From: a virus
Lineage: Duplodnaviria; Heunggongvirae; Uroviricota; Caudoviricetes
Strand: one strand, 5' to 3'
IMG/VR virus record: IMGVR_UViG_2630968342_000019
DNA length: 34,787 nucleotides
In this document: piece after piece, positions 6,633 to 30,256 of the stretch
How the letters are laid out: each line of letters begins with the position of its first letter
Numbering within the stretch: the stretch's first letter is position 1
The notes under the pieces: generated by a model
Told to the model about the DNA's origin: nothing
Seen by the model: only the letters and a program-made list of their open reading frames with translations
Databases searched by the model: none
Made by a program: the position numbers and the translations under genes

Positions 6633-7226
6633 TCAATTATGTAAATCTTTTGTTTTATGTTCTTTGGCGTGTTGTGACAACAAATGGCTATAGCGTTTAA
6701 GCAAAATATTAGAAAGATTAAGCTCATTCATGAAGTGTTCTTCTAATAAGTAACCATCAATATCAACTTTAATATCATTACCACTTTTCATCTTCTGTAA
6801 CGTAGATTTTACACGCTCCAGCAGGATGCTTTGCTCATGGTAATAGTCCATAAGAAGAGTAACATCCTCTTTATCAAGCTTACTTAATTCGCTGAAGTAG
6901 GATTTAAACACTTTATCAGTCTGGTTTAATGCAATCTGTAAGCGAGGCCCCCCTAATGATTTGACATTAATGGCAAAAGGCTCGCCAACAAAATGCTCCG
7001 AATTTTCGTCAAAGCCAATATATCTCGTTTTATCAAGAAAAGTGAGAGCGCGATGGTTATTAGCGATTTCATATGCAAACATTGTTCTGATACTGTCCCT
7101 CTCAGCCTCCATGCTTATATCATCACGATGATTTGTATAAAATATATTTCCAACAAAGAGAACCATAGCAAGAATCACTGAACTTGCCTCCCAGTTAATA
7201 TTTTTTAATCGTCGCTTAGTAAACAT
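6633..7226 (-). CDS. Hypothetical membrane-anchored protein (moron at the P2 Z/fun hotspot)
   Basis: 197-aa ORF in a markedly AT-rich block between tail-fibre assembly gene G and sheath gene FI; N-terminal basic stretch then a hydrophobic helix (EASSVILAMVLFVGNIFYT); AAGGTG Shine-Dalgarno 4 nt before the ATG; own terminator downstream; no motif I can assign. Confidence 0.6.
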   Translation of the reverse strand: MFTKRRLKNINWEASSVILAMVLFVGNIFYTNHRDDISMEAERDSIRTMFAYEIANNHRALTFLDKTRYIGFDENSEHFVGEPFAINVKSLGGPRLQIALNQTDKVFKSYFSELSKLDKEDVTLLMDYYHEQSILLERVKSTLQKMKSGNDIKVDIDGYLLEEHFMNELNLSNILLKRYSHLLSQHAKEHKTKDLHN

Positions 7227-7978: not shown

Positions 7979-10108
7979 TTATACCTGCGCCACGTTATAC
8001 CAAGTCCCGTTAATGTATTTCTGCACCGGTCTGTAATATACGCCACCAATGTTATCGGCAGAGTTTGAGCCGGTATCCTGAACAATAATGCCGGAATATA
8101 CACACCCGGATGGTGCCTGATGTGTCCATGTCATGCCATTGTTCGCAGGTTTGTATGTGGCAGCACCACCAAGCCGGATATCCCGGACATAGCGGGAATC
8201 AAAGTTACCGTAATCCGAGGGATTAACACGCCCCGTAATATTTATGGTTTTATTACTTTGAATGCTACCGGAGACAAAGCGCATAACATGGACGTTATTA
8301 GCATAAACATCCAGATTACCGTCGCCATTTTGTTTAAAGCCCGTGTCATTATCACCCAAAACAATCGAGTTACCGCCAAGAGCACTGGATGTTCCGATAC
8401 CCAGTGCACCATTCAATTGACCTCCAGATAATGACAACGCCCCAACATCAGCAGCAGTTGGTTTAATGTGCGAACTGTAAATTATATATACAGTTCCATC
8501 TGTCAGGCCTGTTGGTTTATTCGCTGTATAAGTTGGTGATGTATGAATCGTTACGCTGGCGTTACTGGTATAATCCCACTGAATATTAACACCCGTGGCA
8601 TAATTACCTATTTCAACATAAACATCATAGGTATCACCGGATGTATTCACCCATGCAAAATTAGTAAATCCAACCGATGTCCGTCGCCATAACGCACCAG
8701 TAAGACCTTTTGGATTTCCATTTCCCGCACGAAGAACAAGTTCAGATATACCAGCCTGCATAGGGGAGTTAACATTATATCCAGCACCACCAATCAGACT
8801 TATGTAAACCACGGAACTGGCCTGTGGCATGGTTACAGTTGCCAGCCTGAACCATCCTGTACCACCACTAAAAGACATGGTTGTTGAATTTGTTGCACCA
8901 ATATTGCGCAGGAATAATCTTTTATCAGGAATATCCGCACCGTTCTGATCTTTCTGAAGACGTTTCTCAGCATTGTCATAGGCAGACTTCACCGCTTTTG
9001 GTGTTGCGGCGAGCGTTTCAGACGTGCTGTTAGTCGCACTACTGAGCTGAACAAGGCCTTTTCGCGCCGTGGTGGCATCCTGCGCAGTATATTTCCCGTT
9101 AGCAAGGTCATACGCGACCTTTACCGCCTTTGGTGTTGCCGCAAGCGTTTCTGAATCGCTGTTGGTGGCGCTACTGAGCTGGACAAGACCTTTTCGCGCC
9201 GTGGTGGCATCCTGTGCGGTATATTTCCCGTTAGCGAGGTCATATGCTGCCTTTACCGCCTTTGGCGTTGCCGCAAGCGTTTCAGAATCGCTGTTGGTGG
9301 CGCTACTGAGCTGAGCAAGCCCTTTTCGCGCTGTGGTGGCGTCCTGTGCAGTGTATTTCCCGTTAGCAAGGTCATATGCTGTCTTTACTGCTTTTGGCGT
9401 TGCGGCGAGCGTTTCAGACGTGCTGTTAGTCGCACTACTGAGCTGAACAAGGCCTTTTCGCGCCGTGGTGGCATCCTGCGCAGTATATTTCCCGTTAGCA
9501 AGGTCATATGCGGCCTTTACCGCTTTCGGCGTTGCGGCCAGTGTTTCAGACGTGCTGTTGGTCGCACTGCTTAACTGAGTAAAACCTTTTGCGGTCAGCG
9601 AGGCGTCCGGGTGACGTCGTGACTGTTCGTGCTCTGCAATTTTGTCATCAACGTAATCCTGCGTCGCCATCACCGTTGTGGTGTCAATGGTCAGCGCCAC
9701 TGAGGCCACACTGCTGACGATGATGACCATGCGACAGGTCTGCGAACGCCCTGAGCCTTCGGCAAGAGCTGGCTTATAACTTTCGGCCATGTTCGCCACG
9801 GCAATTAATGTTCCCGCATCATCGTACAGGCCAAGCTCACGCATCCAGAAACCGCCCACCTCCGGCGGAATAACCAGCTCTGCGATAATATAATTACTGT
9901 TTCGTTTGTCCTGACTGATTTTGTTCAGCGCATGTCGCCAGACTTCGTGGATAAGCCCGGTCTGTCCGGCATCCGGGACAGGCAATTTACCACCGCCATC
10001 CCCGACGGCCATCGTGGTAATGTTGACCTTCCGCCCTCCCGGTGCGGTTGCCGCTGCCAGCTTTGCTGCACCGGCAGTGGTGATAACGGTTTTGAATTTT
10101 GTGCTCAT
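7979..10108 (-). CDS. H: Tail fibre protein (P2 gpH-like) with five internal ~44-aa repeats
   Basis: 709-aa ORF; N-terminal ~160 aa recognised as the conserved P2 H baseplate-attachment region; central five-fold repeat LSSATNS(T/D)SETLAATPKAVK.AYDLANGKYTAQDATTARKGL typical of phage tail-fibre repeats; divergent C-terminal receptor-binding part. Confidence 0.9.
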   Translation of the reverse strand: MSTKFKTVITTAGAAKLAAATAPGGRKVNITTMAVGDGGGKLPVPDAGQTGLIHEVWRHALNKISQDKRNSNYIIAELVIPPEVGGFWMRELGLYDDAGTLIAVANMAESYKPALAEGSGRSQTCRMVIIVSSVASVALTIDTTTVMATQDYVDDKIAEHEQSRRHPDASLTAKGFTQLSSATNSTSETLAATPKAVKAAYDLANGKYTAQDATTARKGLVQLSSATNSTSETLAATPKAVKTAYDLANGKYTAQDATTARKGLAQLSSATNSDSETLAATPKAVKAAYDLANGKYTAQDATTARKGLVQLSSATNSDSETLAATPKAVKVAYDLANGKYTAQDATTARKGLVQLSSATNSTSETLAATPKAVKSAYDNAEKRLQKDQNGADIPDKRLFLRNIGATNSTTMSFSGGTGWFRLATVTMPQASSVVYISLIGGAGYNVNSPMQAGISELVLRAGNGNPKGLTGALWRRTSVGFTNFAWVNTSGDTYDVYVEIGNYATGVNIQWDYTSNASVTIHTSPTYTANKPTGLTDGTVYIIYSSHIKPTAADVGALSLSGGQLNGALGIGTSSALGGNSIVLGDNDTGFKQNGDGNLDVYANNVHVMRFVSGSIQSNKTINITGRVNPSDYGNFDSRYVRDIRLGGAATYKPANNGMTWTHQAPSGCVYSGIIVQDTGSNSADNIGGVYYRPVQKYINGTWYNVAQV
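8960..9640 (-). repeat. Tandem ~132-bp coding repeats (about 5 copies) inside tail-fibre gene H
   Basis: Nucleotide motif ttcgcgc(c/t)gtggtggc recurs at 9061, 9193, 9325 and 9457 (period 132 bp); the protein repeat is visible in the H translation. Confidence 0.8.
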
Positions 10109-10118
10109 TATTCCTCAC

Positions 10119-10649
10119 TTATCCGGGGTAAACCGTAATTACATCGCCGTCGTAAGCCACACCACCGGCGAACAGGTAGCCGGGAATGTCCCGGGTAATG
10201 TTCAGGCCAATAAGGTGGCGGCTTGCAGGTTTGGCATCAGCAATCAGCCGTTCCATTTCCTGATACATTGCCTCTGTGATGCCACTTTCCAGTACACCAA
10301 TATCAAGCCGGAAGGTGCCGGGCGGGTCACTGTTTTCCCACCACTCCGTCACGTTGATGAGATAGCCGAGCGGCTCCACCACACGCCGGATTGCACCTAT
10401 AGTGCCTTTATGACAGTGGATGAAATACGCATCGCGGATAACGGCGCGTTTTGTCGCTTCCGGCCACTTTTCATCCCACCTGTCGACCGAAAACGCCCAC
10501 GCCAGCCACGGCAGCAGATTTGCCGGACAGGTGTCCGGGTTCCACAGCTCACGAATACTGACCGGCGTTTTTTCAATTTCCGCACAGGCTTTTGCGGCGG
10601 CGACCTCAAGCGGTGATGAGCCGGTCGGCAGCAGTCGCGAATCACTCAT
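10119..10649 (-). CDS. I: Baseplate assembly protein (P2 gpI-like)
   Basis: 176-aa ORF, same length as P2 I, recognised as gpI. Confidence 0.92.
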   Translation of the reverse strand: MSDSRLLPTGSSPLEVAAAKACAEIEKTPVSIRELWNPDTCPANLLPWLAWAFSVDRWDEKWPEATKRAVIRDAYFIHCHKGTIGAIRRVVEPLGYLINVTEWWENSDPPGTFRLDIGVLESGITEAMYQEMERLIADAKPASRHLIGLNITRDIPGYLFAGGVAYDGDVITVYPG

Positions 10650-11212
10650 CCGAGCCTCCGGTCACGACGCGGTATTCGGTACAGAAAGACGCCTGCGTAC
10701 TGTTGAGCACGATGTCGGCCAGTGGTGCAGCCAGTTCGACACGCTGCACACCTTCCACATGCAAAGCGGCATAAATGGCAGACAGACGGATGTCGCGCCC
10801 CAGCCGGTGCTGTGCCGTGATATACGCTTCCAGTTTTTTCACGGCGGCAGCGCGAATGGGTTCGCTTTCGGGACCAGGGTAAAGGTAAAGCGTGGCGTTT
10901 ATCTGGTATTCAACGATGGCGGCAGACTGCACGGTCACGCGGTCGGCCACCGGCCTGACGTCCTCGCCATTAAGGGCGTTACGCACCACCGCCAGCAGGT
11001 CTTCGGATGCGACACCGTTATTTTCACGTGACAGCACAGAGATGGTGACGCAGGCCGGAGACGGACTGGTTACAGAAATATCCGCGACACGCCCGTCGGC
11101 ACTGCGACCATGATACTGATAGGCCCCCACCGACCCGGCGACGCTTAAACCTTCAAACGCCTGCTGAATACGCAGACGATAATCCGTGTCAGATTCCATC
11201 ACTGCCGGTGTC
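10642..11212 (-). pseudogene. J: Baseplate protein J, C-terminal fragment ('J), separated from its N-terminus by an IS insertion
   Basis: Translation ...TQTPAVMESDTDYRLRIQQAFEGL... is the C-terminal ~190 aa of P2 gpJ. The annotated 201-aa ORF begins inside the IS terminal repeat; genuine J sequence resumes at the target-site duplication. Confidence 0.85.
11207..11212. repeat. Target-site duplication, left copy (GGTGTC)
   Basis: The 6 bp immediately left of the IS terminus TGCGTATT are identical to the 6 bp immediately right of the other terminus (13810..13815). Removing the IS plus one copy restores an open J frame encoding ...STLPPTPAVMESD... Confidence 0.65.
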
Positions 11213-11297
11213 TGCGTATTACCGTGAAGGAGATCGGTGAGTAACATCGATGGAGATCGGTTCGTGTCACTTTCACAGAACCGTTTTTAAATTACCT

Positions 11298-12049
11298 TCA
11301 CTGATCTCCTTCGGTCAACGGAGATTGTATTTTCCGCATTGATTCTCCTTTAAGTTCGATCTTGATACTGCCATGAACCAGTCGATCTAGGATGGCATCC
11401 GCATGTGTGGAGTCTCCGATCATTTTGTACCAGTTTTCCACCGGCAACTGGCTCACTACGATGATTGAGCCTCGTTGGTACATCAGATCCACTATTTCCA
11501 GCAGGTCGCTACGCTGTTCTGATGAGAGAGGTTCCAGCCCCCAGTCATCCAGAAGCAGCAGATCGCTATTATTCAGCCAGGTCAAAAGTTTGCTGTATCT
11601 TCCATCAGCATGCCCCTGATAGCACTGTTCCATCAGCGCTTTAAGGCGATAATAGTAGACCTTGTATCCCTGTCGGCAGGCATTATGACCAAGTGCACAT
11701 GCCAGGAACGTTTTACCGCTGCCGGTGGCCCCGGTCAGTAAAATATTTTGTTTCAGGGTTAACCAGTTTCCCTGACTGAGTGAACGGATGAGGGCCCTGT
11801 CCAGCCCTCTATTGTTACGATAATCCAGCTTTGATAACTCAGCATTAAGTCTGAACCGTGCATGTTTGATCAGACGCTCTGCCTTCCTGTTTTCACGGCA
11901 GGTTAGTTATTCTGCTGTCAGTAATGACAGGCGTTCTTCGAAGCCCCAGCTCCTGGTATGTGCCCGGCTGAGCAAGTTGCTTTTTAAGCGCATCACGGAA
12001 GCCGGTGAGTTTAAGTGCGGTCAGTTGTTCGTAAAGATGATTCATCATT
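11298..12049 (-). pseudogene. istB: istB (IS21-family helper ATPase), apparently disrupted
   Basis: The Walker A region LLTGATGSGKTFLA and the C-terminal 111 aa are IstB-like. Upstream, the frame starting at the ATG (12049; MMNHLYEQLTALKLTGFRDALKKQLAQPGTYQELG...) is out of register with the Walker A frame (apparent +1 base near ctggggcttcgaa), and that frame has an in-frame TAA after ...FEERLSLLTAE. Confidence 0.55.
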
Positions 12050-12059
12050 GGATCCCGTA

Positions 12060-13616
12060 TCAGTGGTAATACTCACTGCCGCGTACGTTTTCGTGTTCCA
12101 TCGTGGATAACAGATCTGGTTTTGGATCCTGAACAGGTTGTTTATCCAGACCTTTTTCCAGGATCGATTTAATACCTGACAGACGCCATACCTTTGTTTT
12201 CAGAGCTCTTGCACATGCTGCATTAAGTCTGGCTTTACTGTATTTTTTATGAAGGTTCAGGAGTCCAAGGCAGAAGCGATAGCTTTGTTCCGGATGTGGA
12301 CGAGAGTTCAGTATATGAAGCACATAACTATGAGTTTCACTGCCTATGTGCCCCGCCCATTCCAGAAGACGCTCTGGCGTCCAGGTGGCATGCTGTCGAT
12401 GAGCTTCAGGCATGTGCGACCCTTCGGGTTCTGTGACCGTACCATAAGTATATGCAAGGTATAAGTCGCTTGCGCGGGGCACAGCAACTCTGCCCCTGAT
12501 TGAAGAGCTTCCATTCTCCGGAGACCATGCTTTTTTCAAGTGGGGCCTAAACGGACCCGGAAACGAGTAGTAATGTTTGTCGATTTCCACGTGGTAATCG
12601 GCATGAACTCTGACTTTCTTCACCAGGGTGTAACTGTAACTGGCTTCAGGAAGAGGCTTCAGTGCGGGTTTATCAAGCTGGATGAAGAGTTCTGCACGTG
12701 AATAACCCAACTTCTGCATTATTTTGTTATTCAGTCTTTCCAGCAACTCCCGAATGCGCTGATTAAGCGATGCAAGGCTGTAGAAGATCTCATGCCTGAT
12801 TCGGGCCATGATCCAGCGTTCAACAACCTGAACGCCAACTTCAGCTTTGGCTTTATCTTTCGGTTTACGTGGCCGCGCAGGCAAAACTGCGACATTATAA
12901 TGCTCAAGCATCTGCTGGTAGGTAGGGTTAACGTCAGGATCATACTTACATGCCCTGGATGTGGCGCTTTTCAGATTGTCCGGAACAACAAGTTCAGGAA
13001 CGCCACCCAACCACTGGAAGCAGCGAACATGACTCATCACCCAGTCTTCAAGCTGCTGAGACCAGGTGGCCTCTGCCCATGTGTAACTTGATGCCCCGAG
13101 AACAGCTACGATGACCTGAGCAGTTCTTATTTCTCCGGTCTCAGGGTCGGTAACGCCAACGGTAGGTCCACAGTAATCAACGAAAAGTTTTTCGCCAGCT
13201 TTATGTACCAGACGCATTGATGGTGAAGTGGTTTTGAGCCATTCACGGTACATCCGGCAGTAATGGTTATAGCTGTAAAAACCGCCTGGATTACGCTCAC
13301 AGTATTCTTCCCAGAGTAGCTGCAGCGTCACGCATTTATTACGCAGTTCCCGGTGTACTGTAGCCCAGTCAGGCAGAGAGTGCTTCTTCATCTTAACCTG
13401 GGTCTGAAGGAACGCATGTTTTAGTTTTGTATCATCCCATCCTGTAGGTAAGGGCCACTGCTTTATGCCAAGTTGAGCCGCCCGATTAGCATATCTGGAT
13501 ACAACGGAAGGGGAGATTGCAAGACTACGACCAATTTGTCGATGGCTGAGTCCAACACCGTATTTAAGCCTAAGAATTTCTTTAAGTTTTCTCATAGAAA
13601 TTGGAACTGTTGGCAT
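12060..13616 (-). CDS. istA: IS21-family transposase IstA
   Basis: 518-aa ORF with an N-terminal helix-turn-helix region, a DDE-type integrase core and the conserved IstA C-terminus (...HYYSFP...WTPERLLEWAGHIG...GIKSILEKGLD...); ATG at 13616. Confidence 0.85.
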   Translation of the reverse strand: MPTVPISMRKLKEILRLKYGVGLSHRQIGRSLAISPSVVSRYANRAAQLGIKQWPLPTGWDDTKLKHAFLQTQVKMKKHSLPDWATVHRELRNKCVTLQLLWEEYCERNPGGFYSYNHYCRMYREWLKTTSPSMRLVHKAGEKLFVDYCGPTVGVTDPETGEIRTAQVIVAVLGASSYTWAEATWSQQLEDWVMSHVRCFQWLGGVPELVVPDNLKSATSRACKYDPDVNPTYQQMLEHYNVAVLPARPRKPKDKAKAEVGVQVVERWIMARIRHEIFYSLASLNQRIRELLERLNNKIMQKLGYSRAELFIQLDKPALKPLPEASYSYTLVKKVRVHADYHVEIDKHYYSFPGPFRPHLKKAWSPENGSSSIRGRVAVPRASDLYLAYTYGTVTEPEGSHMPEAHRQHATWTPERLLEWAGHIGSETHSYVLHILNSRPHPEQSYRFCLGLLNLHKKYSKARLNAACARALKTKVWRLSGIKSILEKGLDKQPVQDPKPDLLSTMEHENVRGSEYYH

Positions 13617-13809
13617 AGGTATCCTTTACCGGAATGGCAAAAGATACAGATCAACACACCTGTGAAGTTCCAATAACATTGATGGAGATCACTGAATAAC
13701 AAAATGAGTCAAAAGTGATCTCCATCGATGTTATTCAGCGATCTGTTCAAATGTTATTACCCGATCTCGATGGAAGTTATTGAGTGATCTCCTTTCATGA
13801 AAATACGCA

Positions 13810-13815
13810 GGTGTC
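13810..13815. repeat. Target-site duplication, right copy (GGTGTC)
   Basis: Identical to 11207..11212 and immediately abutting the IS terminus. Confidence 0.65.
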
Positions 13816-14153
13816 GGCGGGAGGGTCGAATCATCTGCCGGGGTGATAATCAGGCGCGTGGTGTTGTAATTGGCACCAATCACATCAAGGTCATTACCGG
13901 CGGCACAGGCCAGCATTACCGCCCGTGCGGCCTCATTCACACGCTGACGCCAGATAAGCTCACGATAAGCATTTTCCTCCAGCAGTTTGACGAGAGGCTC
14001 GGATTCCAGCGTCAGGGTACGGGCGACCGCCTCCTGCTGGTCTTCCGGGTAAAGGGAAATCAGTGTCGCCTTGCGTTCGGCAAGAATGGTTTCAAAGTCC
14101 AGCTCCTCGACCACATCCGGTGCAGGTAGCTGGTTCAGGTCGATAATCGGCAT
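13810..14153 (-). pseudogene. J: Baseplate protein J, N-terminal fragment (J'), truncated by the IS insertion
   Basis: Translation MPIIDLNQLPAPDVVEELDFETILAERKATLISLYPEDQQEAVARTLTLESEPLVKLLEENAYRELIWRQRVNEAARAVMLACAAGNDLDVIGANYNTTRLIITPADDSTLPPTPA is the gpJ N-terminus; the frame then runs 24 codons into the IS end before a stop at 13731. Confidence 0.85.
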
Positions 14154-14157
14154 GGTT

Positions 14158-14505
14158 TCAACTCACAGGGATGGTTAACGAAAGTGGCTGGCCGGTGTCG
14201 TTGTGCTGGCCGGTCAAAGTGACAGTCATTCGCCCGTCAAAACCGCGCTCAGTGGTGACGGATGACAGGGTGATGCGGGGTTCCCATTTCAGCACCGCCA
14301 TGTAACAGGCGACCTTAATCTGCAACTCAAGCGCCGGGGTCTGCGGCTGGTCAATCATTGACGCCAGCAACGAGCCGTAATCACGACGCATCACCCGTGA
14401 GCCGACCGGTGTGCGCAGGATATCGCCGATACTCTGGCTGATATGCTCAAGGTCAGTGACAGTCAGGCCATCACTGCGATTCATTCCGAGATAACGCGCT
14501 GTCAT
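14158..14505 (-). CDS. W: Baseplate wedge protein (P2 gpW-like, gp25/lysozyme-like fold family)
   Basis: 115-aa ORF, same length as P2 W, recognised as gpW. Confidence 0.92.
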   Translation of the reverse strand: MTARYLGMNRSDGLTVTDLEHISQSIGDILRTPVGSRVMRRDYGSLLASMIDQPQTPALELQIKVACYMAVLKWEPRITLSSVTTERGFDGRMTVTLTGQHNDTGQPLSLTIPVS

Positions 14506-15137
14506 AGAGGACTCCCGGTTGTGCCGCCGCTGTCGCCGGGGTGTTTATGGGTATGCAGTACTTTACCGTTTGATGAGAGTTCACCGCCGGTATGTTCAAT
14601 GTTGCCGCGCATCGTCCCGCCCTTCTGCACTTCCAGCGTGCCGGTAATCAGTTTGTTGGTGCAAACCACCTCCGGTGTGTCCAGGGTGACGCGGGTTGAT
14701 GCTTTCACCATAACCACCGGCACCGTGGCAGTAACAGAATCAGAAGCCGTCACGCTGGCCGTTTTAATTCCGCTTACCGTGAGCGCGCTGGTTTCGGGTT
14801 CATACTCAATCACCGCCCCGTCAGGGAAACGGATATGCAGGGCATCCGCCGACGCAGACGGCGCGGGGTTATCACCGGAATAAATCCCCGGCAGAACGAA
14901 CGCCGTGTCGAGTTCACCGCCCACGGCCAGAATCAGCACCTGTTCACCCACGGAAGGTGCCCACCATGTGCGCGAACGCCCGGCGCGATGGGTCAGCCAC
15001 TGAAGCCAGTCGGTGCACATGCCGCCGGTCTGCACACGGCAGCGACCGGCTTTAAGGTTGGTTTCGACGACAAGACCGGTGCGAATCATGTTGCGCAGTG
15101 CGCGCGCGAGTTCCTGAATATTTGCGAGAGTGTTCAT
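14502..15137 (-). CDS. V: Baseplate central spike protein (P2 gpV-like)
   Basis: 211-aa ORF, same length as P2 V, recognised as gpV; stop overlaps the W start. Confidence 0.92.
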   Translation of the reverse strand: MNTLANIQELARALRNMIRTGLVVETNLKAGRCRVQTGGMCTDWLQWLTHRAGRSRTWWAPSVGEQVLILAVGGELDTAFVLPGIYSGDNPAPSASADALHIRFPDGAVIEYEPETSALTVSGIKTASVTASDSVTATVPVVMVKASTRVTLDTPEVVCTNKLITGTLEVQKGGTMRGNIEHTGGELSSNGKVLHTHKHPGDSGGTTGSPL

Positions 15138-15203
15138 AACGGGAAGGATGCCGCCGGGTCATACCGGCGGCAATGTGACGATGAGGTGTCGGGAATGGCA
15201 CAA

Positions 15204-15656
15204 CTAACGGTCGAGGTGAGCCAGAATAATCTCTTCAATCATCTGCACATCCTCACCGGTAAAGCCGAGCAAAGGACGCGCCGGATAATCAATTTTCTTA
15301 CCGTCTTTCCGGGTTTCTTCCGACAGACCGAACTGATGCACACTGGCGATTTTCGGCGACTTCCCGCCGTAAAATTCCATTGATGCCTGTTCCGGGCTGG
15401 CGCGGATATGCAAAAAACGACTGGTGATAAGTTTCGCAAACATTTTTCGCTTAACACGACCGGTCTTTTTTCTGGCGCTCTGCTGCTGGCGTGGCGCGTA
15501 GGGTGTGCCGTCCGGGGCTTTCTGTGCCATCACCCGACGCTGCTGACTCTGCCGCAGACGCTTCGCCAGCTCTGCACTCAGCCGCCGACGCCCTGACGGT
15601 GACAGCGACTCAATAAGTCCGGTCAGCCGGTCTTCAAAACGCTTAAACTCATTCAT
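15204..15656 (-). CDS. S: Tail completion protein (P2 gpS-like)
   Basis: 150-aa ORF recognised as P2 S; follows R. Confidence 0.9.
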   Translation of the reverse strand: MNEFKRFEDRLTGLIESLSPSGRRRLSAELAKRLRQSQQRRVMAQKAPDGTPYAPRQQQSARKKTGRVKRKMFAKLITSRFLHIRASPEQASMEFYGGKSPKIASVHQFGLSEETRKDGKKIDYPARPLLGFTGEDVQMIEEIILAHLDR

Positions 15657-16116
15657 CCCACTTGCTCACCAGTTCGCCATTGATATAAAGCTCCATCGGG
15701 CGGGTGACCGGTTCCGGCGGCGGGGGTTCCGGGATATTCTTCACATGCAGTGCGCCGTCAACCTCACTGACCAGCGTGCGCTCGGTCAGCATCAGGCTGA
15801 TACTGATATCAAAGCTGCTGTCATTGTTGATGTCTGCATAAAATGTGAAGCCCTTTTTCTGGCCTTCGTCGGTGGTCATGATGTCGGGCTGATTTTCCCG
15901 CAGCCACGCCAGCACCGGCACGATGAGCAGGTCAAAATCACCGGTAAAGTCGGTCACAATGACATTGAGCGTGTAACGCTTTTCGAATGACAGCGACGCA
16001 GCCAGTGTGGAGGCAATACTCCCGTTATCCACGAATATCCGCAGCATCTCGGGGCTGGTTTTCAGCACCGTGACGGCATCAGTCAGTGCCCTGCGCAGGC
16101 TGTCGGGTTTGAGCAT
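15649..16116 (-). CDS. R: Tail completion protein (P2 gpR-like)
   Basis: 155-aa ORF recognised as P2 R; follows the lysis cassette. Confidence 0.9.
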   Translation of the reverse strand: MLKPDSLRRALTDAVTVLKTSPEMLRIFVDNGSIASTLAASLSFEKRYTLNVIVTDFTGDFDLLIVPVLAWLRENQPDIMTTDEGQKKGFTFYADINNDSSFDISISLMLTERTLVSEVDGALHVKNIPEPPPPEPVTRPMELYINGELVSKWDE

Positions 16117-16369
16117 CGTTTTCGTCCTGACAGTGTTTAATCATTTTTACCTGGCTGGCACAGCGTGCCAGCGCGTTCTCAAGCTGCCGGATATCGGCAC
16201 TTAAATCGCCGTTCGTCTCCGGGTCACTGCCCGGCATCGGGCAAAGACTCACTTTCGGGCAGGCGTTGTGGACAATCACTGGCGTCGGTACAGGCCGGGC
16301 GCTGGTGCAACCGGCGCACAGCATCAGGCAGGTCAGCACCGTACCAGCGGCGAAAATCTTCGTTTTCAT
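16079..16369 (-). CDS. lysC: Outer-membrane spanin lipoprotein LysC (Rz1-like), embedded in the lysB/R overlap
   Basis: Internal Met of the 135-aa ORF starts MKTKIFAAGTVLTCLMLCAGCTS, a lipoprotein signal peptide with lipobox LCAGC; Pro-rich mature part; lies in the +1 frame within the 3' part of lysB, the classical embedded spanin arrangement. Confidence 0.75.
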   Translation of the reverse strand: MKTKIFAAGTVLTCLMLCAGCTSARPVPTPVIVHNACPKVSLCPMPGSDPETNGDLSADIRQLENALARCASQVKMIKHCQDENDAQTRQPAQGTD

Positions 16370-16649
16370 TAAGTAACCTCGTGATGGTTTTCTCGCGCTG
16401 TGCTTCACGCTTCGCGGCGTTTTCCAGTTCCTGACGTAGTGCCACCTGCGCCAGCTCGTTTTTGTCTGCCCTGGTGAGGGCAACATGAAGCTGATTTTTC
16501 AGCATGGTGATGGTCGTCTGCTGCCCGTTGGCGACGTTGCTCGCCCTGTCCAGTGAGGTGCGCAGGCTGGCGTTTTCATGCTTCGCCAGAAACAGACCGG
16601 CCACCGCCAGTGATAACAACACAACCAGCACAATCATCAGCTTTGACAT
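16224..16649 (-). CDS. lysB: Inner-membrane spanin LysB (Rz-like)
   Basis: 141-aa ORF with an N-terminal transmembrane helix (LMIVLVVLLSLAVAGLFLA) followed by a coiled-coil periplasmic domain; same length as P2 LysB. Confidence 0.88.
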   Translation of the reverse strand: MSKLMIVLVVLLSLAVAGLFLAKHENASLRTSLDRASNVANGQQTTITMLKNQLHVALTRADKNELAQVALRQELENAAKREAQREKTITRLLNENEDFRRWYGADLPDAVRRLHQRPACTDASDCPQRLPESESLPDAGQ

Positions 16650-17062
16650 GGTTCCCGCCCCTCAAAACGCTGACGACAGGCCGTGCGTATCAGCCGGAAG
16701 AACACCGACGCCACGAGGTAAATCAGCGCGGTAAAAATCCACCCGGCAGCGACCAGCGAGATAAACGTCGCCACCATCACCACCAGAGCCGCCGCCCGTC
16801 TGCGCCACGGCACCGGCTGCAAAAACAGCGACGCGACAATCTTCACGGCCAGCGATTCCGGCGGCAGCTCCCGCCCGTAGCGTTCCAGCACATACTCAGT
16901 GGCATACACGCCGACACCACCGGCAACCACACAGATAACCGTCGCCAGAATCGCCCAGGCGGCGACAAAATTGACGGCCACGCTCTGCGGGTAAATCAGG
17001 GACAGTGCCAGCATCAGCGCCAGCGACACGTTCAGCATCAGTGAAAGGGATAATTTCTTCAT
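16637..17062 (-). CDS. lysA: Lysis timing membrane protein LysA
   Basis: 141-aa polytopic membrane protein immediately downstream of endolysin K, as in P2. Confidence 0.85.
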   Translation of the reverse strand: MKKLSLSLMLNVSLALMLALSLIYPQSVAVNFVAAWAILATVICVVAGGVGVYATEYVLERYGRELPPESLAVKIVASLFLQPVPWRRRAAALVVMVATFISLVAAGWIFTALIYLVASVFFRLIRTACRQRFEGREPCQS

Positions 17063-17076
17063 GGTGTTTACTCCGT

Positions 17077-17574
17077 TTAAGCCGGTACGCCGCCAGCGGT
17101 ACGCCAGACGGTGACCAGTTTTTCCAGTGAATGCTCACGCTGACCGTAACCGGCACCCGGCAGGGACGCCCAGATATTGCGACAGCGTGAAATGGCGCGC
17201 TCAATGCGTCCCGCCCGGATGTCATCCAGTGCACCGCGTTCGCGGATCAACTGAATGGCGAGTCTGTCCTGTGACAACGGGCTGAAATCAGGCAGGGCAA
17301 GCTGTTTACGGTAGTGCGGCCAGAACAGGTAAAGCTGCTGATAGCGACCGGAGGCCGTGGATTTTTCACCGCGACGGTTAAACACCTTCGCCGGTCGGCC
17401 ATGTGCGAACGGGTGGTCACTGTAGTCGGTGAAAATTTCCGGCTTTCCGTCCAGTCCGGTGACTATCACGTCATAGCCCCGGTTTTTTGTCAGCGGATGA
17501 TTCGCCGTCCCTTCGGACACGGCCAGCATGTCGAGAAAGGCGGCGATATTCTGATGCGTGTTAATTACCGGCAT
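17077..17574 (-). CDS. K: Endolysin (P2 gpK-like lysozyme)
   Basis: 165-aa ORF, same length as P2 K, recognised as gpK; follows holin Y. Confidence 0.92.
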   Translation of the reverse strand: MPVINTHQNIAAFLDMLAVSEGTANHPLTKNRGYDVIVTGLDGKPEIFTDYSDHPFAHGRPAKVFNRRGEKSTASGRYQQLYLFWPHYRKQLALPDFSPLSQDRLAIQLIRERGALDDIRAGRIERAISRCRNIWASLPGAGYGQREHSLEKLVTVWRTAGGVPA

Positions 17575-17855
17575 TACGGTTTCCCCCTGCCCTTAAAGCG
17601 GCGCTGAATGGCAATCTCAATCACCTGATAACCGGCGATACCCAGCATGGAGCCGATGCCGCACACCGCAGGCAGTGGCAGGTCAGGAAACTGCACCAGA
17701 ACAACACCGGCAACCATCGAGACAAAACCACCGAGCAACATGCGCCCGATAAACAGACGCGGGGTGATGGGTTCACCACCGGCAAGCACCTTGCCGACAA
17801 CAATCAGCACCCCAATCATGAAAAGCGACAGGACGCTTTTTTCTTCTGCTGTCAT
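17574..17855 (-). CDS. Y: Holin (P2 gpY-like)
   Basis: 93-aa ORF with hydrophobic transmembrane segments and a charged C-terminal tail (RRFKGRGKP); same length as P2 Y. Confidence 0.9.
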   Translation of the reverse strand: MTAEEKSVLSLFMIGVLIVVGKVLAGGEPITPRLFIGRMLLGGFVSMVAGVVLVQFPDLPLPAVCGIGSMLGIAGYQVIEIAIQRRFKGRGKP

Positions 17856-17858
17856 GCG

Positions 17859-18062
17859 TTACTCCCACAGATTGACAGTTTCAGCCACGGGCGCGGTCTG
17901 AACGTCGGGCAGTTCGACGGCGGTGCCATGTGGCAGCACCGCCCCCAGTTCAGCCAGTCCCGGATTTGCGGCGAGCACAGCCTCGACCACGCCCTCAGTG
18001 CGCCCGTAATACCGGACACAAATGGCGTCAAGCGTGTCGCCCTGTAGCGCAAAGGTCTTCAT
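17859..18062 (-). CDS. X: Tail protein X (P2 gpX-like, LysM-like)
   Basis: 67-aa product starting at the internal Met (MKTFALQGDTLDAICVRYYGRTEGVV...), recognised as P2 X; the longer 90-aa ORF in the track is an upstream extension overlapping L. Confidence 0.85.
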   Translation of the reverse strand: MKTFALQGDTLDAICVRYYGRTEGVVEAVLAANPGLAELGAVLPHGTAVELPDVQTAPVAETVNLWE

Positions 18063-18571
18063 CAGATTTGACTCACGATGCAGCGCGGCTTGTCCTGGAT
18101 GCGCGCCACTGCCCAGCGCATATCCCGCCACAGCTCATCAATGGTGCTGTCAATGCTGTCGGCCTTCTTGTCGCCTTTCGCACTGGCATCCACGCCGCGA
18201 TAACGCTCATAAAGCGATGCGGTCGCCATCGCACACACGGCGCGCTCGTAGTAAAAAACTTTGATGCTTTCACCGTCGATGTCGTCCGCCGGGACGTCCG
18301 CCAGACGCGTAAAACCGGCAGCAATTTTCTGTTCGCGGTACTCGTACAGCTCCGCATTCGTTTCAGCCATGCCTGACTTGATGGCCTCACGCAGACGGGC
18401 GGGAGCGACGGTCTGCTCAAGGCGCATACGTTCCCGGACGCGCTTCGGGTCGATATCGGGAAAAAAGAACGTGTTTTTAATCACCGGCTCATCGCCTGCC
18501 GGTTGCGGGATGACCACCGTACCCTCACCGGACACGGGAGCCTCCTTTCGCGGAATAATCAGCGTCATCAT
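18062..18571 (-). CDS. L: Capsid completion protein (P2 gpL-like)
   Basis: 169-aa product from MMTLIIPRKEAP..., recognised as P2 L; the track ORF is extended 20 codons upstream. Confidence 0.88.
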   Translation of the reverse strand: MMTLIIPRKEAPVSGEGTVVIPQPAGDEPVIKNTFFFPDIDPKRVRERMRLEQTVAPARLREAIKSGMAETNAELYEYREQKIAAGFTRLADVPADDIDGESIKVFYYERAVCAMATASLYERYRGVDASAKGDKKADSIDSTIDELWRDMRWAVARIQDKPRCIVSQI

Positions 18572-24815: not shown

Positions 24816-26774
24816 ATGTCAGATTTCGAAATTAAAATTGATTTGAATGTGCTAAATCACCTAGGGATGAGTCTCTATTCCAATACTCCCGCGGTACTAA
24901 CTGAGATTATATCAAATGCATGGGATGCAGATGCTCAAAATGTAGAAATTACACTTGATGTTGAGAAAGGAGAGGTCATCATTAAAGATGATGGTCATGG
25001 CATGTCTAAAGATGACATTATTAATAAGTTCCTAAAAGTCGGTTATGCTCGCAGGGAACATGGAAGAGCCAAAAGCGATCATCTAAAACGTCAAGTTATG
25101 GGCAGAAAAGGTATTGGTAAGCTTGCCATGTTTTCACTTGCCAATAAAATCCAAGTTTATTCTTACAAAAAGGGGGAACAGCCTCAGGCCTTTGAGGTAG
25201 ATGTCAAAGATTTACAGCAAAGTATCAAAGAATCAAAAAACTATATTGCTGACTCCCTTGAAATACCCGAAAATCTTGCTTACGGCACTACAATTAAATT
25301 ATTTGAACTAAAAAAAGCCATTGATAGGACTCAAACTTACCTCAGAAAGCGAATAGCTCGTCGATTTAGCATTATTGGCCCCAACCATAACTTTACAGTT
25401 AAAATTAATGGGACCGATATTACACCGGCAGATAGAGATTTCCTTTCAGATCTCGAGTTCATTTGGGAATTTGGCGAATCCGACCCTGAAAGGATAAAAT
25501 CCTGCACAAACATCACACAAAAAAACATATTACCAAATACTATTACCTTTGAAGGAAAAGATGTAAAAGTTAGTGGGTACATTGGCAGTGTAGTTAAGCC
25601 ATCACAGTTAAAGAAAGACCCTGAAATATCTAACAACAGCATTACTGTAATCTCTCACGGACGTGTTTTTGAGGAGGACATATTATTAGAATTTGGAAGT
25701 GCTAAAGTATTCACCAATTATCTGGTCGGTGAAATAGTCGCCGATTTTCTAGATGATAACGAAAAGCCTGATATGGCAACATCTTCTCGTCAAAAACTAC
25801 AACAGAATGATCCAAGATACCCTGTACTTAAAGGTTTTCTGGAAAGAACGCTACAACTAATCGATAAAGATTGGGATAAATGGAGACGCGAAAAAGGAGT
25901 AAATGAAGTTAAAAGCAATACTCCAATAGTAAGTGAATGGCTGAATTCTCTCAAAAAACATGAGAGAGAAAGTGCCGAAAAGTTAATTGGACGAGTAAAC
26001 ACATTCCGTTTTTCTGGTAATGAGGAAGAACAAAAAGCAGCAAGAAAAACCGTATTAAAAAATACGGTATTAGCCTTTGAAAGACTTAGAATTCAAGACA
26101 ACCTTGATGCATTAGATAAAATAAGCAACCTTCAATCAGAAAATTTTAAAGATGTATTTGCATCTGTCAATGACATTGAAGCAAGCATGTTTTATGAAAT
26201 TACTTCGCAACGCCTTAAAGTAATTGAAAAATTCCAAAAAATAACTGATGAAAATCAGCTTGAAAGAGCTGTACAAATGTATTTATATGATCATTTATGG
26301 TTATTGGATCCTTCATGGGAAAGAGTCACAGGCACATCTGTTATGGAGCAAACATTGACCAAGGAACTAAAACAGATAAACCCTGATGCTGCTAGCGGTG
26401 CTCGTATTGATATCGCTTTCAAAACCGTTTCTGGCAAGCATGTAATTATTGAGATGAAACGACCTAAAGTGCACCCAGATATAATGAACCTAGTCGCACA
26501 AGGTAATAAATATGTACAGGCAACGACACAATGGTTCTCCAATAACCCTAAAAATTGCCCAGGTGGAAATATACCGCATATAGAAGTAATATTCCTGGTT
26601 GGCTCTGGATATTTACAAGAGAACCAACACTTTATAAATATGCAATTACTTTCTATCAATGGAAAAATATTGACATATAATGACCTAATCGTGCAATCAA
26701 AACAAGCCTATGCTGAATATCAAGACAAAAAGAATGATGCAGCTAGAATTATGAAAATAGTTGAGGGAATCTAA
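24816..26774 (+). CDS. GHKL-type (Bergerat-fold) ATPase fused to a predicted PD-(D/E)xK-like nuclease domain; cargo at the P2 tin/old position
   Basis: 652-aa ORF with an AAGGA Shine-Dalgarno. N-terminal GHKL motifs read directly: N-box E-IIS-NAWDA, G1 box DDGHGM, G2 box GRKGIG. C-terminal region contains ...GARIDIAF-x11-VIIEMKRPK..., consistent with a D...E-x-K nuclease core. AT-rich composition contrasts with the phage core. Confidence 0.75.
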   Translation: MSDFEIKIDLNVLNHLGMSLYSNTPAVLTEIISNAWDADAQNVEITLDVEKGEVIIKDDGHGMSKDDIINKFLKVGYARREHGRAKSDHLKRQVMGRKGIGKLAMFSLANKIQVYSYKKGEQPQAFEVDVKDLQQSIKESKNYIADSLEIPENLAYGTTIKLFELKKAIDRTQTYLRKRIARRFSIIGPNHNFTVKINGTDITPADRDFLSDLEFIWEFGESDPERIKSCTNITQKNILPNTITFEGKDVKVSGYIGSVVKPSQLKKDPEISNNSITVISHGRVFEEDILLEFGSAKVFTNYLVGEIVADFLDDNEKPDMATSSRQKLQQNDPRYPVLKGFLERTLQLIDKDWDKWRREKGVNEVKSNTPIVSEWLNSLKKHERESAEKLIGRVNTFRFSGNEEEQKAARKTVLKNTVLAFERLRIQDNLDALDKISNLQSENFKDVFASVNDIEASMFYEITSQRLKVIEKFQKITDENQLERAVQMYLYDHLWLLDPSWERVTGTSVMEQTLTKELKQINPDAASGARIDIAFKTVSGKHVIIEMKRPKVHPDIMNLVAQGNKYVQATTQWFSNNPKNCPGGNIPHIEVIFLVGSGYLQENQHFINMQLLSINGKILTYNDLIVQSKQAYAEYQDKKNDAARIMKIVEGI

Positions 26775-26815: not shown

Positions 26816-27865
26816 TTAAATATTCATTTCTGACAAATGTTTTAAAATAGTTTCACCTACGACCTCACCAAGCCTAACAGGAACAGCATTACCTATTAAA
26901 CGCGCAACTGTTCTCATTTCAATTTTTACATCATCAGGCCAAAACTCATACTTTTCTGGGAATGACTGTAATAGCGCAGCCTCTCTTAAACTTAATGCTC
27001 TATTTTGGACAGGGTGCCCAAAGCGTCCATTCCCATATCCAATACATTGAGTTGTAATTGTCGGTCCAAGTTTATCCCAACACATTCTCCCATATACAGC
27101 AGTATATGTAGAACCACTTTCTTTTGTATGACATTTTGCTCTTAGCTCTTCTGGCCAATCACGCCATGTTCCACCAGGTTTTGATGCCATTATTCTTTTT
27201 ATATTAATATCAGATAATGATGCAGAGCGATGTAGTTTATCTCCAGCGTGAACAGCACCGGCACTAATTTCAGGAAGATTACCGATTATATCTCGCACCG
27301 TTTTATAATCATTCTTCTCATGAGTTGGTGGAATTATTTCTATTTCTCCATATTTTGATGCCAATAACACTAATCTTGAACGACTTTGTGCCATTCCATA
27401 GTCTGGACAAAACACCACCCCATACCAAACAAAATAGCCATCATTTTTAAGAGACTTAATGAAGTCCTTAAAAACCTTATGATTCACCACTCGGGGAACG
27501 TTTTCCATTGTAATAATATCTGGCTTTGCAAATTTAATTTGCTTAGCAAAGCTATAAAGCAAAGACCATCTTTTATCTTTTGAACGTACTACCCCTAATT
27601 TAGCACTATTAGTATAGCTTGAAAAAGGTTGGCATGGGGCACAACCAGCCAAAACTCGAACCTTCGCTCCTTCGAAATATTTAACTAATTCGCCGTCCTC
27701 AATGTCTGTAACACTTTTCTGGACAAAGAGTGATTTATTATTTGTCTCATAGGCAAATCGACAGGCTGCATCTATATCATAACCTGCAACTACATTAAGC
27801 CCCGACTTCTGAAGACCGTGAGTCAAGCCACCCGCGCCACAGAATAAATCAACAACCTTAATCAA
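26816..27865 (-). CDS. DNA (cytosine-5)-methyltransferase, Dcm-type
   Basis: C5-MTase motifs read from the translation: motif I DLFCGAGG, motif IV PCQPFS, motif VI ENV (TMENVPRVV), motif VIII QSRSR. Likely start is the TTG at 27865 (M/L-IKVVDLFCGAGG) preceded by AAGGAGG with a 6-nt spacer; the track ORF is extended to an upstream TTG at 27967. Confidence 0.85.
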   Translation of the reverse strand: MIKVVDLFCGAGGLTHGLQKSGLNVVAGYDIDAACRFAYETNNKSLFVQKSVTDIEDGELVKYFEGAKVRVLAGCAPCQPFSSYTNSAKLGVVRSKDKRWSLLYSFAKQIKFAKPDIITMENVPRVVNHKVFKDFIKSLKNDGYFVWYGVVFCPDYGMAQSRSRLVLLASKYGEIEIIPPTHEKNDYKTVRDIIGNLPEISAGAVHAGDKLHRSASLSDINIKRIMASKPGGTWRDWPEELRAKCHTKESGSTYTAVYGRMCWDKLGPTITTQCIGYGNGRFGHPVQNRALSLREAALLQSFPEKYEFWPDDVKIEMRTVARLIGNAVPVRLGEVVGETILKHLSEMNI

Positions 27866-27976: not shown

Positions 27977-30256
27977 TTAGTTTGTTTCAAATCCCGCCCA
28001 ACCATCAGAAATCGGATATGAAAACGTTTTCCCATCATAATTTACGGTCGCGCCACGCGCCAGCGCCTCAAGCTCCCATCGCTGCGGCCTGATACCGTTC
28101 TGAGCAAGGTCAACGCGGATACGGGTAATTTGCATTCTTTCCGACCGGGTCAGTCTGGCCGATGGTGCAATTTCATGTGGTTTTAACGAGCTTCCGTTTC
28201 TTTGCTGACGACTTGGCGTTCTCCGACCGTGTTTTAATGCACCTCTGAGCGCCCTCACGACCTCCGGGTCACTCCATTCGATAACACCGTCATCAACCAG
28301 ATTAAGCACTGCTGCGGCGTGCTCAGAAGGTGTGGGAGCCGGTAACGAAGTATCACCACCGGTGAGTTTTCCACAGTTATTGACAGGACTCCGAGGCGCG
28401 GCGATGCCGCTTTTTAAAGTCAAAGGCTCAACGACCGGCACTTTCGGAACAATGCGCCAGTCCGTCGTTCTGGTGATATGAATATGACGCGCGCCGAGAT
28501 GCGGCGCGTAAATGCCGACCACTCTCTCGACTTCTTCCTCGTACTCGTTAACTTCATCCGACGGACTACGGGCAACCCTGACAGTCTGACAATCGCGCGG
28601 AACATTTGCTCCACCCTGCGCGCTGATATACAACGCAAAATCACCACTGTCTGCGGCAGCGCGTGCAGCCTCGACGCGTTCGTCAAACTCATCAGCAATG
28701 CTGACGCCGCGAGGCAATTTGCGTAGTTCACGGTAAGCCCCCATTGTCGGCAGGCCAACCGTTTTAAATTGCGGAATGCGCCACGTTGACGCCCATGCGG
28801 TAACAGCCGCGGCAGTGTCTTTCAGCGGCCTGCCGGTATCGTTATCGAGCTGACCATCCAGTGCATAGCCATCGATGTTTTTTGAAATGTATTTCGCGAT
28901 ATACCCCGCAGCACCGCCCCGGTTAAGGTGTTTTGCCTGAAAACGGTTTCGCGCAGCTCCTCTTTCGTCGCCATCCTCTTTGAGCGCGTAGCGACGCATG
29001 ATTTCAATAATCTGGTTACGCTGGCGTGGATTACAAAAAAGCATCATATGCCAGTGCGGCGTTCCGTCGTGGTGTGGCTCGACGACTCGCAAACCGTAGA
29101 CCTGTAAATCATTATCCTTGAATGCCGTGCGCATCAGGCTCCAGATACGGCAGAGATAACGCTGCGCATCCTTTGGATTAAATGCCTCATCGTTCCAGCC
29201 GTGATTTAGCTGGACGGTTTTACTTTCTCCTTTTCCGACCTGACGTGTCGGGTGATACTTTGACGGCGCGGTCAGCGTGATAAACATCCCCACATCACCC
29301 TCTGCTGCGGCGTAACGCTCAATACCGGCGATGGTGTTCATCAGCTCCATCCGGCGAATTTCTGGATTAGAAATACTGCCCATCACCTTACTGATAAGGT
29401 CGATGCGCTCGCCGGTTTCCTTGTTTTCAAGGTCACACGATTTAAGAAACTCCAGATTTGCCTGGCGGCGCGCACGCACATCACGAATGGCATGTTTACT
29501 GGCATAAGGAGAACGGTCTTTATTGACCTCCCCGACAGCAATCAGTAACGCCTCATGCCAGCGCATACGCTGGCCTTTAAGCTGATGAGTCCACCACTCA
29601 TCGTTAAACAGACGGGCAATGGCAGAATATGCCTGCCTCGTGGTTATCTGTCCTTTACGGTATTTTTTCCAGTAGAGCGGGGAAATATTGAAAGCACGTG
29701 CAGCGCCAGCAACATGACCATACAGGTGAGTCTGCGCCTCATCCGTAAACAGCGATTCTTTTTCGCCATGTGCATCAACCCATGCATCGCAGAGTTCCTC
29801 ATACATCATGAAAAGCTGCGATGAGATACGGGCGGCAAACTTTTTCAGCTCCTTGTCATTCATTCCAGGCAGGCGCGCATAGTGGTCACGCTCTGCCAGA
29901 AACAGCAACGACGCGTCGGTGTTCATTTCATGGCGCTGATTCACGCGCTCAATGCGCGGCCATAAACGACGCTGAAAAGTGGATGTGAGGAAATAAAACC
30001 CGTGCACCGGGCTTTTATTGCGCCGGATGTAGTCATAGCGTGAAGTAAACAGCGAGCGCAAAAAGTAAGGCAGGCGGTTAATCGTGGATAAAACACCTTG
30101 CACCTGACGCATCTCGTCACGTGTAAGGGGTCTTTCGCGCCCGACGGCCTCGCGTGGCGCGTTCCATGCATAAGCACCGGTAAACGCCTTACCGGTGCCT
30201 GCAGCAAATGCTGACGGAGGTACGCAGGTGTATTGCTCCTGGAAAGAATGACTCAT
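27977..30256 (-). CDS. A: Replication initiation protein (P2 gpA-like rolling-circle endonuclease)
   Basis: 759-aa ORF (P2 A is about 761 aa) recognised as gpA; last gene of the early operon on this strand. Confidence 0.92.
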   Translation of the reverse strand: MSHSFQEQYTCVPPSAFAAGTGKAFTGAYAWNAPREAVGRERPLTRDEMRQVQGVLSTINRLPYFLRSLFTSRYDYIRRNKSPVHGFYFLTSTFQRRLWPRIERVNQRHEMNTDASLLFLAERDHYARLPGMNDKELKKFAARISSQLFMMYEELCDAWVDAHGEKESLFTDEAQTHLYGHVAGAARAFNISPLYWKKYRKGQITTRQAYSAIARLFNDEWWTHQLKGQRMRWHEALLIAVGEVNKDRSPYASKHAIRDVRARRQANLEFLKSCDLENKETGERIDLISKVMGSISNPEIRRMELMNTIAGIERYAAAEGDVGMFITLTAPSKYHPTRQVGKGESKTVQLNHGWNDEAFNPKDAQRYLCRIWSLMRTAFKDNDLQVYGLRVVEPHHDGTPHWHMMLFCNPRQRNQIIEIMRRYALKEDGDERGAARNRFQAKHLNRGGAAGYIAKYISKNIDGYALDGQLDNDTGRPLKDTAAAVTAWASTWRIPQFKTVGLPTMGAYRELRKLPRGVSIADEFDERVEAARAAADSGDFALYISAQGGANVPRDCQTVRVARSPSDEVNEYEEEVERVVGIYAPHLGARHIHITRTTDWRIVPKVPVVEPLTLKSGIAAPRSPVNNCGKLTGGDTSLPAPTPSEHAAAVLNLVDDGVIEWSDPEVVRALRGALKHGRRTPSRQQRNGSSLKPHEIAPSARLTRSERMQITRIRVDLAQNGIRPQRWELEALARGATVNYDGKTFSYPISDGWAGFETN

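Follow-up and report, generated by a model that had tools for sequence, protein, structure and literature searches.

Apparent decay of an ISEc12 copy in baseplate gene J of a P2-like Escherichia coli prophage: very probably an assembly artefact

The ISEc12 insertion in baseplate gene J

The window analysed here, that is, the whole stretch of 34,787 nt of IMG/VR record IMGVR_UViG_2630968342_000019, contains a P2-like prophage in which the baseplate gene J is split by an insertion sequence. The 5' part of J, recognised by Pfam as Baseplate_J_N, occupies 344 nt of the minus strand (13810..14153), and its ORF continues into the inserted element, to position 13731. The 3' part (10642..11212, minus strand, 571 nt) matches Baseplate_J_M and Baseplate_J_C. 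Both pieces together reconstitute the gene, 344 + 571 - 6 = 909 nt being the length of intact J.

The element itself, a copy of ISEc12 belonging to the IS21 family, extends from 11213 to 13809 on the minus strand. These boundaries were established by means of the uninterrupted J gene of phage fiAA91-ss and the copies present in the E. coli strains G8 and 14EC020. Comparison with J of fiAA91-ss, in which the empty site ccgccGACACCggcagtg appears once, also revealed the target-site duplication: the hexamer GACACC is found on either side of the IS, the upstream copy (in the sense of the minus strand) at 13810..13815 and the downstream copy at 11207..11212, both read on the minus strand. The duplication generated by the ISEc12 copy of 14EC020 is the 5-bp GTCAC, as against 6 bp here. 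In the IS21 family, target-site duplications range from 4 to 8 bp.

The ends of the element, 5'-TGCGTA...TACGCA-3', have the TG...CA termini of the IS21 family, with the terminal sequences TGCGTATTTTCATGAAAGGAGATC... at one end and ...GATCTCCTTCACGGTAATACGCA at the other. The left terminal inverted repeat region (13742..13809, minus strand) contains internal repeats of the GATCTCC type, and the right one is located at 11213..11279 (minus strand); within the IS ends, the inverted pairs I1, I2 and I7 and the direct families D1 and D2 can be distinguished. Both terminal regions are intact and do not show a single difference from those of the G8 copy. Over its full length, the element is 97.9-98.0% identical at the nucleotide level to copies named ISEc12 by PGAP, which labels the matching E. 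coli elements as ISEc12, IS21-like, comprising the transposase gene istA and the helper ATPase gene istB. The gene order is that of the IS21 family, istA (a DDE transposase with the rve core) being followed on the same strand by istB (an AAA+ ATPase, IstB_IS21). Thus, all the features of the IS21 family and of ISEc12 that can be tested, namely gene order, termini, target duplication and identity, are present, and this ISEc12 copy is a normal member of its family, located in a known kind of place, a structural gene of a prophage.

The closest comparison is provided by the ISEc12 copy of 14EC020 (NZ_CP024138.1; IstA WP_001298859.1, IstB WP_001016257.1), with which the window copy shares its ends, the istA-istB order and the internal repeats, being 98.0% identical over the full length. 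The two copies are separated by 52 difference columns, which correspond to one scrambled patch in istA and just four isolated positions outside it: A to T at 13210, an extra G at 11944-11947, G to T at 11909 and A to T at 11579. The window copy is 16 nt longer than that of 14EC020 (2597 bp versus the 2581 bp of consensus copies), and carries the istA patch, the extra G, a TAA codon and two bases for which the source record gives N, all of these differences being private to that record. With regard to the IstA-IstB system described for IS21 and IS5376, a DDE transposase IstA and an AAA+ helper IstB, both of them needed for transposition, are shared with it, as are terminal inverted repeats built of repeated elements (PMC11208146). 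The IstA of ISEc12 has 513 aa and a C-terminal domain of the Mu-transposase type.

Interruption of istB and state of istA

When delimited by the reference gene, istB covers positions 11298..12048 of the minus strand. It starts at 12048 and not at 12049, as had been stated in the initial annotation of this DNA, and consists of 751 nt, in an interrupted reading frame, as opposed to the 747 nt (248 aa) of intact copies. The same annotation had reported a frameshift and an in-frame stop in the gene. Both are present in the text of the window and do not derive from a wrong choice of frame by the reader; alignment to intact ISEc12 traces them to a single extra G and a single substitution. The first lesion is a run GGGG at 11944..11947 (minus strand), where all the other copies have GGG, which causes a +1 frameshift after IstB codon 35. 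Consequently, the frame opened by the istB ATG on the minus strand encodes MMNHLYEQLTALKLTGFRDALKKQLAQPGTYQELG, leaves the IstB frame, and reaches a stop after 51 aa. The second lesion is a G to T change at 11909, by which the GAA codon of other copies, encoding IstB E47, becomes TAA (11907..11909, minus strand); it interrupts the frame that contains the Walker A motif, which reads ...WGFEERLSLLTAE up to the stop at 11909-11907 and LTCRENRK... beyond it.

The longest ORF past the istB stop has 111 aa (11298-11633), and its first possible in-frame start is the ATG at 11633. In the 248-aa reference IstB, Walker A corresponds to residues 106-113, and the 111-aa ORF begins downstream of this motif. 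Since the first start available after the stop lies past Walker A, no product of the window istB, as it is written, could be ATPase-competent. The C-terminal fragment still matches IstB_IS21 in Pfam (E = 3.5e-28; the intact IstB of G8 reaches 227.5 bits). A further apparent change in the gene, A to T at 11579 (minus strand), would turn CCAGG into CCTGG and lead to IstB R157W; this position is an N in the public draft record.

The istA gene (12060..13616, minus strand) had been considered to look intact in the initial annotation. Pfam searches and alignment offer a different picture: the ORF is indeed open, with 518 aa versus 513 aa in the reference, but it is internally garbled. A patch of 146 nt (12418..12563, minus strand) is scrambled with respect to consensus ISEc12, with 48 differing alignment columns made up of small indels and mismatches and a net gain of 15 nt, so that some 54 residues are affected. 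Thus, IstA residues ~352-405 are replaced, SFPGPFRPHLKKAWSPENGSSSIRGRVAVPRASDLYLAYTYGTVTEPEGS being found in the window where the reference has SVPCSLLGQQLEAWISGELVRLFNQGQEVAVHPRKRTYGYSTRNE. The rve domain is recognised at residues 139-252 of the window IstA. The score of the Mu-transpos_C_2 domain falls from 59.6 bits in the intact IstA of G8 to 24.4 bits, below the Pfam cut-off of 27 bits, and the match is cut at residue 353. An apparent A to T change at 13210 (minus strand), which would give IstA Q136L, is also an N in the public draft record.

The composition and the position of the patch are both peculiar. Its differences from the consensus are mostly indels of 1-6 nt rather than substitutions, a profile unlike that of natural divergence. 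It is located 1205 nt from one end of the IS and 1246 nt from the other, its centre lying only 20 nt off the midpoint of the element, a centring whose probability by chance is ~1.7%. It is there that the distance to the unique contigs on either side, and to any terminal primer, is greatest.

The same insertion in later complete genomes

A search of 5,426 complete E. coli genomes located the J::ISEc12 junction in only two of them, those of strains G6/7 (CP060061.1) and G8 (CP060057.1). Both strains originate from faecal material of a healthy individual in Germany, and they are two of the six strains that compose the probiotic Symbioflor 2 (PMC4358396). Their complete genomes (NZ_CP060061.1 and NZ_CP060057.1, respectively) are dated 2020. 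Compared with the J::ISEc12 of G6/7 and G8, the window has the same insertion site, the same target duplication and identical flanks. However, istB is intact at the J locus of both 2020 genomes, where it encodes the consensus 248-aa IstB (WP_001016257.1). The proposal that istB has decayed, and that the IS would hence be immobile, is therefore not supported by the same insertion in its own lineage. When the whole window was aligned to G8, where it is bounded by the ends of gene D and of the integrase gene, 54 difference columns were obtained, all of them inside the IS, as opposed to 0 differences over the ~32.2 kb of the flanks. The real feature at this locus is an ordinary insertion of ISEc12 in the baseplate gene J of a P2-like prophage from the Symbioflor 2 G6/7 and G8 lineage.

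The 2020 copies are not identical to the consensus either. In that of G6/7, the sole departure from consensus ISEc12 is a 2-bp deletion within istA (IS positions 1184-1185), which makes PGAP label this gene as 'frameshifted', and in that of G8 it is a 2-nt change at IS positions 1636 and 1638 (window 12159 and 12157), where CCTGG is converted to CCTCG with a shift, giving IstA E482G. The private changes of both copies fall inside the Dcm motif CCTGG, of which the element contains only 10 sites, accounting for 1.9% of its bases. It has been described that consensus errors of nanopore assemblies in Enterobacteriaceae are found mostly in Dcm motifs and homopolymers (PMC6591954). Since these private changes lie in Dcm motifs and resemble long-read consensus errors that have persisted in a repeat, the 'frameshifted' istA of CP060061.1, like the private change of G8, is probably an error of the 2020 assemblies.

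Distribution of the lesions among other copies

A 121-nt query spanning both istB lesions matched 4,154 places in the 5,426 E. coli genomes, distributed over 1,846 records and 1,423 genomes. Neither lesion was present at any of these places or in any of these records; the best identity was 98.3%, and none of the matches reached 99%. Exact patterns for both lesions together, for the stop with or without the frameshift, and for the frameshift alone were absent from viral, genome and metagenome contigs, the wild-type istB pattern, used as a positive control, having been found in 26 viral contigs. In the other ISEc12 copies compared, GGG was found in 32 of 32, G at the position equivalent to 11909 also in 32 of 32, A at 13210 in 30 of 30, and A at 11579 in 31 of 31. 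Viral contigs contained neither a 30-mer specific to the istA patch nor the J::ISEc12 junction pattern. Look-ups of the exact products of istA (518 aa) and of the istB remnant (111 aa) returned no entry because the draft has an N in both genes and its products contain X.

If these changes were the result of real decay, a mutation load like that of the neighbouring DNA and reproducibility would be expected. As for the first, 54 difference columns were counted in 2.6 kb of IS and none in ~32.2 kb of flanks; under uniform mutation, the probability that the six events all fall in the same 7.5% of the window is ~2e-7. As for the second, the same junction in G6/7 and G8 is accompanied by a consensus istB.

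The source draft and the origin of the lesions

The 140-aa N-terminal fragment of J and the 51-aa product of the frameshifted istB each occur on one contig only, JPMZ01000054.1 (GCA_000768465.1), on which the gene calls within the IS are of 518, 51 and 111 aa. This contig agrees throughout with window positions 9731-18153, save that two T of the window are N in it. These N correspond to window positions 13210 and 11579, both of which are among the four isolated positions at which the window departs from consensus ISEc12. It appears, then, that the ambiguity symbols were replaced by a plain base in the text of the window, thus creating two false substitutions, IstA Q136L and IstB R157W. JPMZ00000000 is the 2015 draft genome of E. 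coli G6/7, and CP060061.1, in which istB is intact, is a later, complete version of the same genome. The draft was obtained by Velvet assembly of Illumina GAIIx reads, and its gaps were closed by sequencing PCR products (PMC4358396). Signs of an artefact coincide in this segment: uncertain base calls, a multi-copy repeat that the assembly method cannot resolve, and a published manual closure of gaps.

Taking all this into account, the istB frameshift, the stop, the two apparent SNPs and the istA patch very probably constitute, as a whole, an artefact of assembly or gap closure, and not biological decay. Five observations support this reading: the lesions were not recovered when G6/7 and its near-clonal sibling G8 were independently sequenced, ambiguity symbols are present in the segment as deposited, the changes are confined to 7.5% of the window, the patch is centred close to the IS midpoint, and the types of change (one over-called homopolymer, isolated miscalls and a stretch rich in indels) fit poor reads and not natural divergence. 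As the alternative to decay, the initial annotation had raised errors of sequencing or of assembly within a G-run, and it is this alternative that is now supported by the intact later assemblies, the ambiguity symbols of the draft and the confinement of the differences to the IS. It had also been anticipated there that raw reads exposing the lesions as assembly errors would overturn the decay; this has come about in part, and by way of an independent assembly.

The artefact would have arisen from the way in which an IS present in several copies was rebuilt when the short reads of the 2015 draft were assembled. The IS query matches six places in the genome of G8 and likewise six in that of G6/7. 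A repeat present at six genomic places could not be assembled by Velvet from short reads, and hence the stretch must have been filled by other means. We infer that the errors entered through low-quality Sanger sequencing or PCR gap closure across this repeat. A model based exclusively on two terminal Sanger reads faces a counterpoint in the segment 11948-12417, which is located at least 735 nt from either end of the IS and is nonetheless error-free. Since two reads leave this clean segment unexplained, some further source, for instance a collapsed IS contig or walking primers, must have been drawn on there, and part of the interior of the IS probably has such an origin.

The errors proposed here resemble those already known from the assembly of repeats, be it by short-read gap closure of collapsed IS copies or as long-read errors at Dcm motifs and homopolymers (PMC6591954). 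They are confined to a multi-copy repeat, and share with the known cases an error in homopolymer length, ambiguity codes and an indel-rich stretch of low quality, the base-by-base technical route in JPMZ01000054.1 being the part that we infer. The location of window position 11579 within a CCAGG sequence led to the consideration of nanopore errors at Dcm motifs as a cause of the changes in the window; this idea was rejected, given that the source predates such data and is based on Illumina and Sanger sequencing (PMC4358396), and the link to Dcm motifs is retained for the 2020 assemblies only.

Alternative explanations

The first alternative, real pseudogenisation in the 2015 culture, has a slim chance of being correct. 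According to it, the istB of this copy would have acquired a nonsense mutation in addition to a +1 frameshift, and its istA would have been scrambled; the copy would no longer produce IstB and would rely on other copies in order to move. Decay of IS copies does occur in nature. Moreover, the istB lesions were deposited as unambiguous bases, unlike positions 13210 and 11579, and would strip Walker A from any product, and the initial annotation was right in stating that IS21 transposition needs IstB (PMC11208146). It could also be argued that, in principle, short-read polishing from other IS copies overwrote real private variants in the 2020 assemblies, or that the stock sequenced in 2015 differs from that of 2020. 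With respect to the former, the 2020 copies have kept private differences of their own, which suggests that the J-locus copy was not overwritten by the consensus. Against real decay stand the consensus istB at this locus in the resequenced G6/7 and in its sibling G8, the accumulation of 54 columns in the IS and none in the ~32.2 kb of flanks, the ambiguity codes in the same segment together with the patch at the IS midpoint, and the fact that neither lesion occurs in any other copy examined. That the lesions were real in the 2015 G6/7 culture, with both genes of one ISEc12 copy wrecked, is a slimmer chance still. It would mean that the wrecking proceeded faster than one substitution in ~32.2 kb of flanking prophage, and would imply either some mutagenic process that is directed at the IS and rich in indels, or abortive recombination occurring repeatedly at this copy.

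Less probable again, and very unlikely to be correct, is a gene conversion in which a diverged or decayed relative of the IS21 family overwrote part of the copy in one or a few recombination events. Such a mechanism would account for differences limited to the IS with identical flanks, and each of the genomes of G8 and G6/7 offers six places matching the IS query. However, a donor for the patch was sought in the 5,426 E. coli genomes ('distant' mode), and no record covered 80% of the patch query, the best E. coli match being ISEc12 itself, with ~80% identity over 68% of the query. Furthermore, no E. coli record has either istB lesion, the indels of 1-6 nt by which the patch differs are unlike the differences between diverged homologues, and the patch is missing from the 2020 genome of G6/7. 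As the donor search found ISEc12 only, gene conversion was discarded.

Recoding, in which the extra G would be a programmed frameshift site and the TAA would be read through so that full IstB is still made, has a practically negligible probability: programmed -1 frameshifting is used by some IS families (IS1, IS3), but all the other copies examined have istB as one ORF without interruptions, a site in use would be conserved and the GGGG site is unique to one record (the reason why this candidate was rejected), and the insertion of +1 nt would need a correcting frameshift plus readthrough of a TAA 35 nt downstream.

Mobility of the element and state of gene J

If the lesions are, as we consider, an artefact of the 2015 draft, what exists in the cells is most likely an ISEc12 copy with consensus istA and istB, as mobile as the other ISEc12 copies. 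The apparent decay is not a biological feature, and no new biology follows from it. From the loss of IstB, it had also been deduced in the initial annotation that the disruption of J is stable. This deduction is weak even on its own terms: the IS query matches six places in each of the two genomes, so that other ISEc12 copies could supply IstA and IstB in trans to the copy at the J locus. Restoration of J, on the other hand, needs the precise loss of the IS together with one copy of the duplication, which the IS21 transposase is not known to carry out. The split in J does not depend on the state of istB, and most likely leaves the prophage incapable of assembling a baseplate.

Two practical considerations can be drawn. 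Pseudogene calls within multi-copy IS of short-read drafts have to be taken with caution, as they may be products of gap closure, and a useful check is whether a comparison with a sister genome yields differences in the repeat only. Moreover, G6/7 and G8 being component strains of Symbioflor 2, the ISEc12 copy of this prophage should be treated as potentially active, and not as dead.

Other features of the prophage

In G8, the prophage is located between ogrK/fieF and cpxP. In the G8 annotation, the CDS of gene D and that of the integrase end exactly at the first (1) and the last (34787) position of the window, respectively. Since its edges are CDS ends, the window is, judging from these coordinates, a prophage call trimmed to gene limits, with the attachment sites outside it.

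Between the portal and the replication genes, the prophage carries as cargo a restriction-modification pair (24816-26774, plus strand, and 26816-27865, minus strand), annotated in G8, in a region identical to that of the window, as a restriction enzyme of the BbrUII/HgiDII family and a DNA cytosine methyltransferase. A gene of the phosphoadenosine-phosphosulfate-reductase family (30253-31260, minus strand) is found directly upstream of the P2-type replication endonuclease gene (27977-30256, minus strand), with which it overlaps by 4 nt; the names of both genes are those of the G8 annotation.

The tail fibre gene H (7979-10108, minus strand) contains, at 8975-9568, a 132-nt (44-aa) unit repeated 4.5 times in tandem with 87% identity, which encodes ...AQDATTARKGLVQLSSATNS(T/D)SETLAATPKAVKAAYDLANGKYT. 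Finally, a hypothetical protein of 197 aa (6633-7226, minus strand) is encoded between the tail fibre assembly and the tail sheath genes, a usual spot for cargo in P2-like phages.
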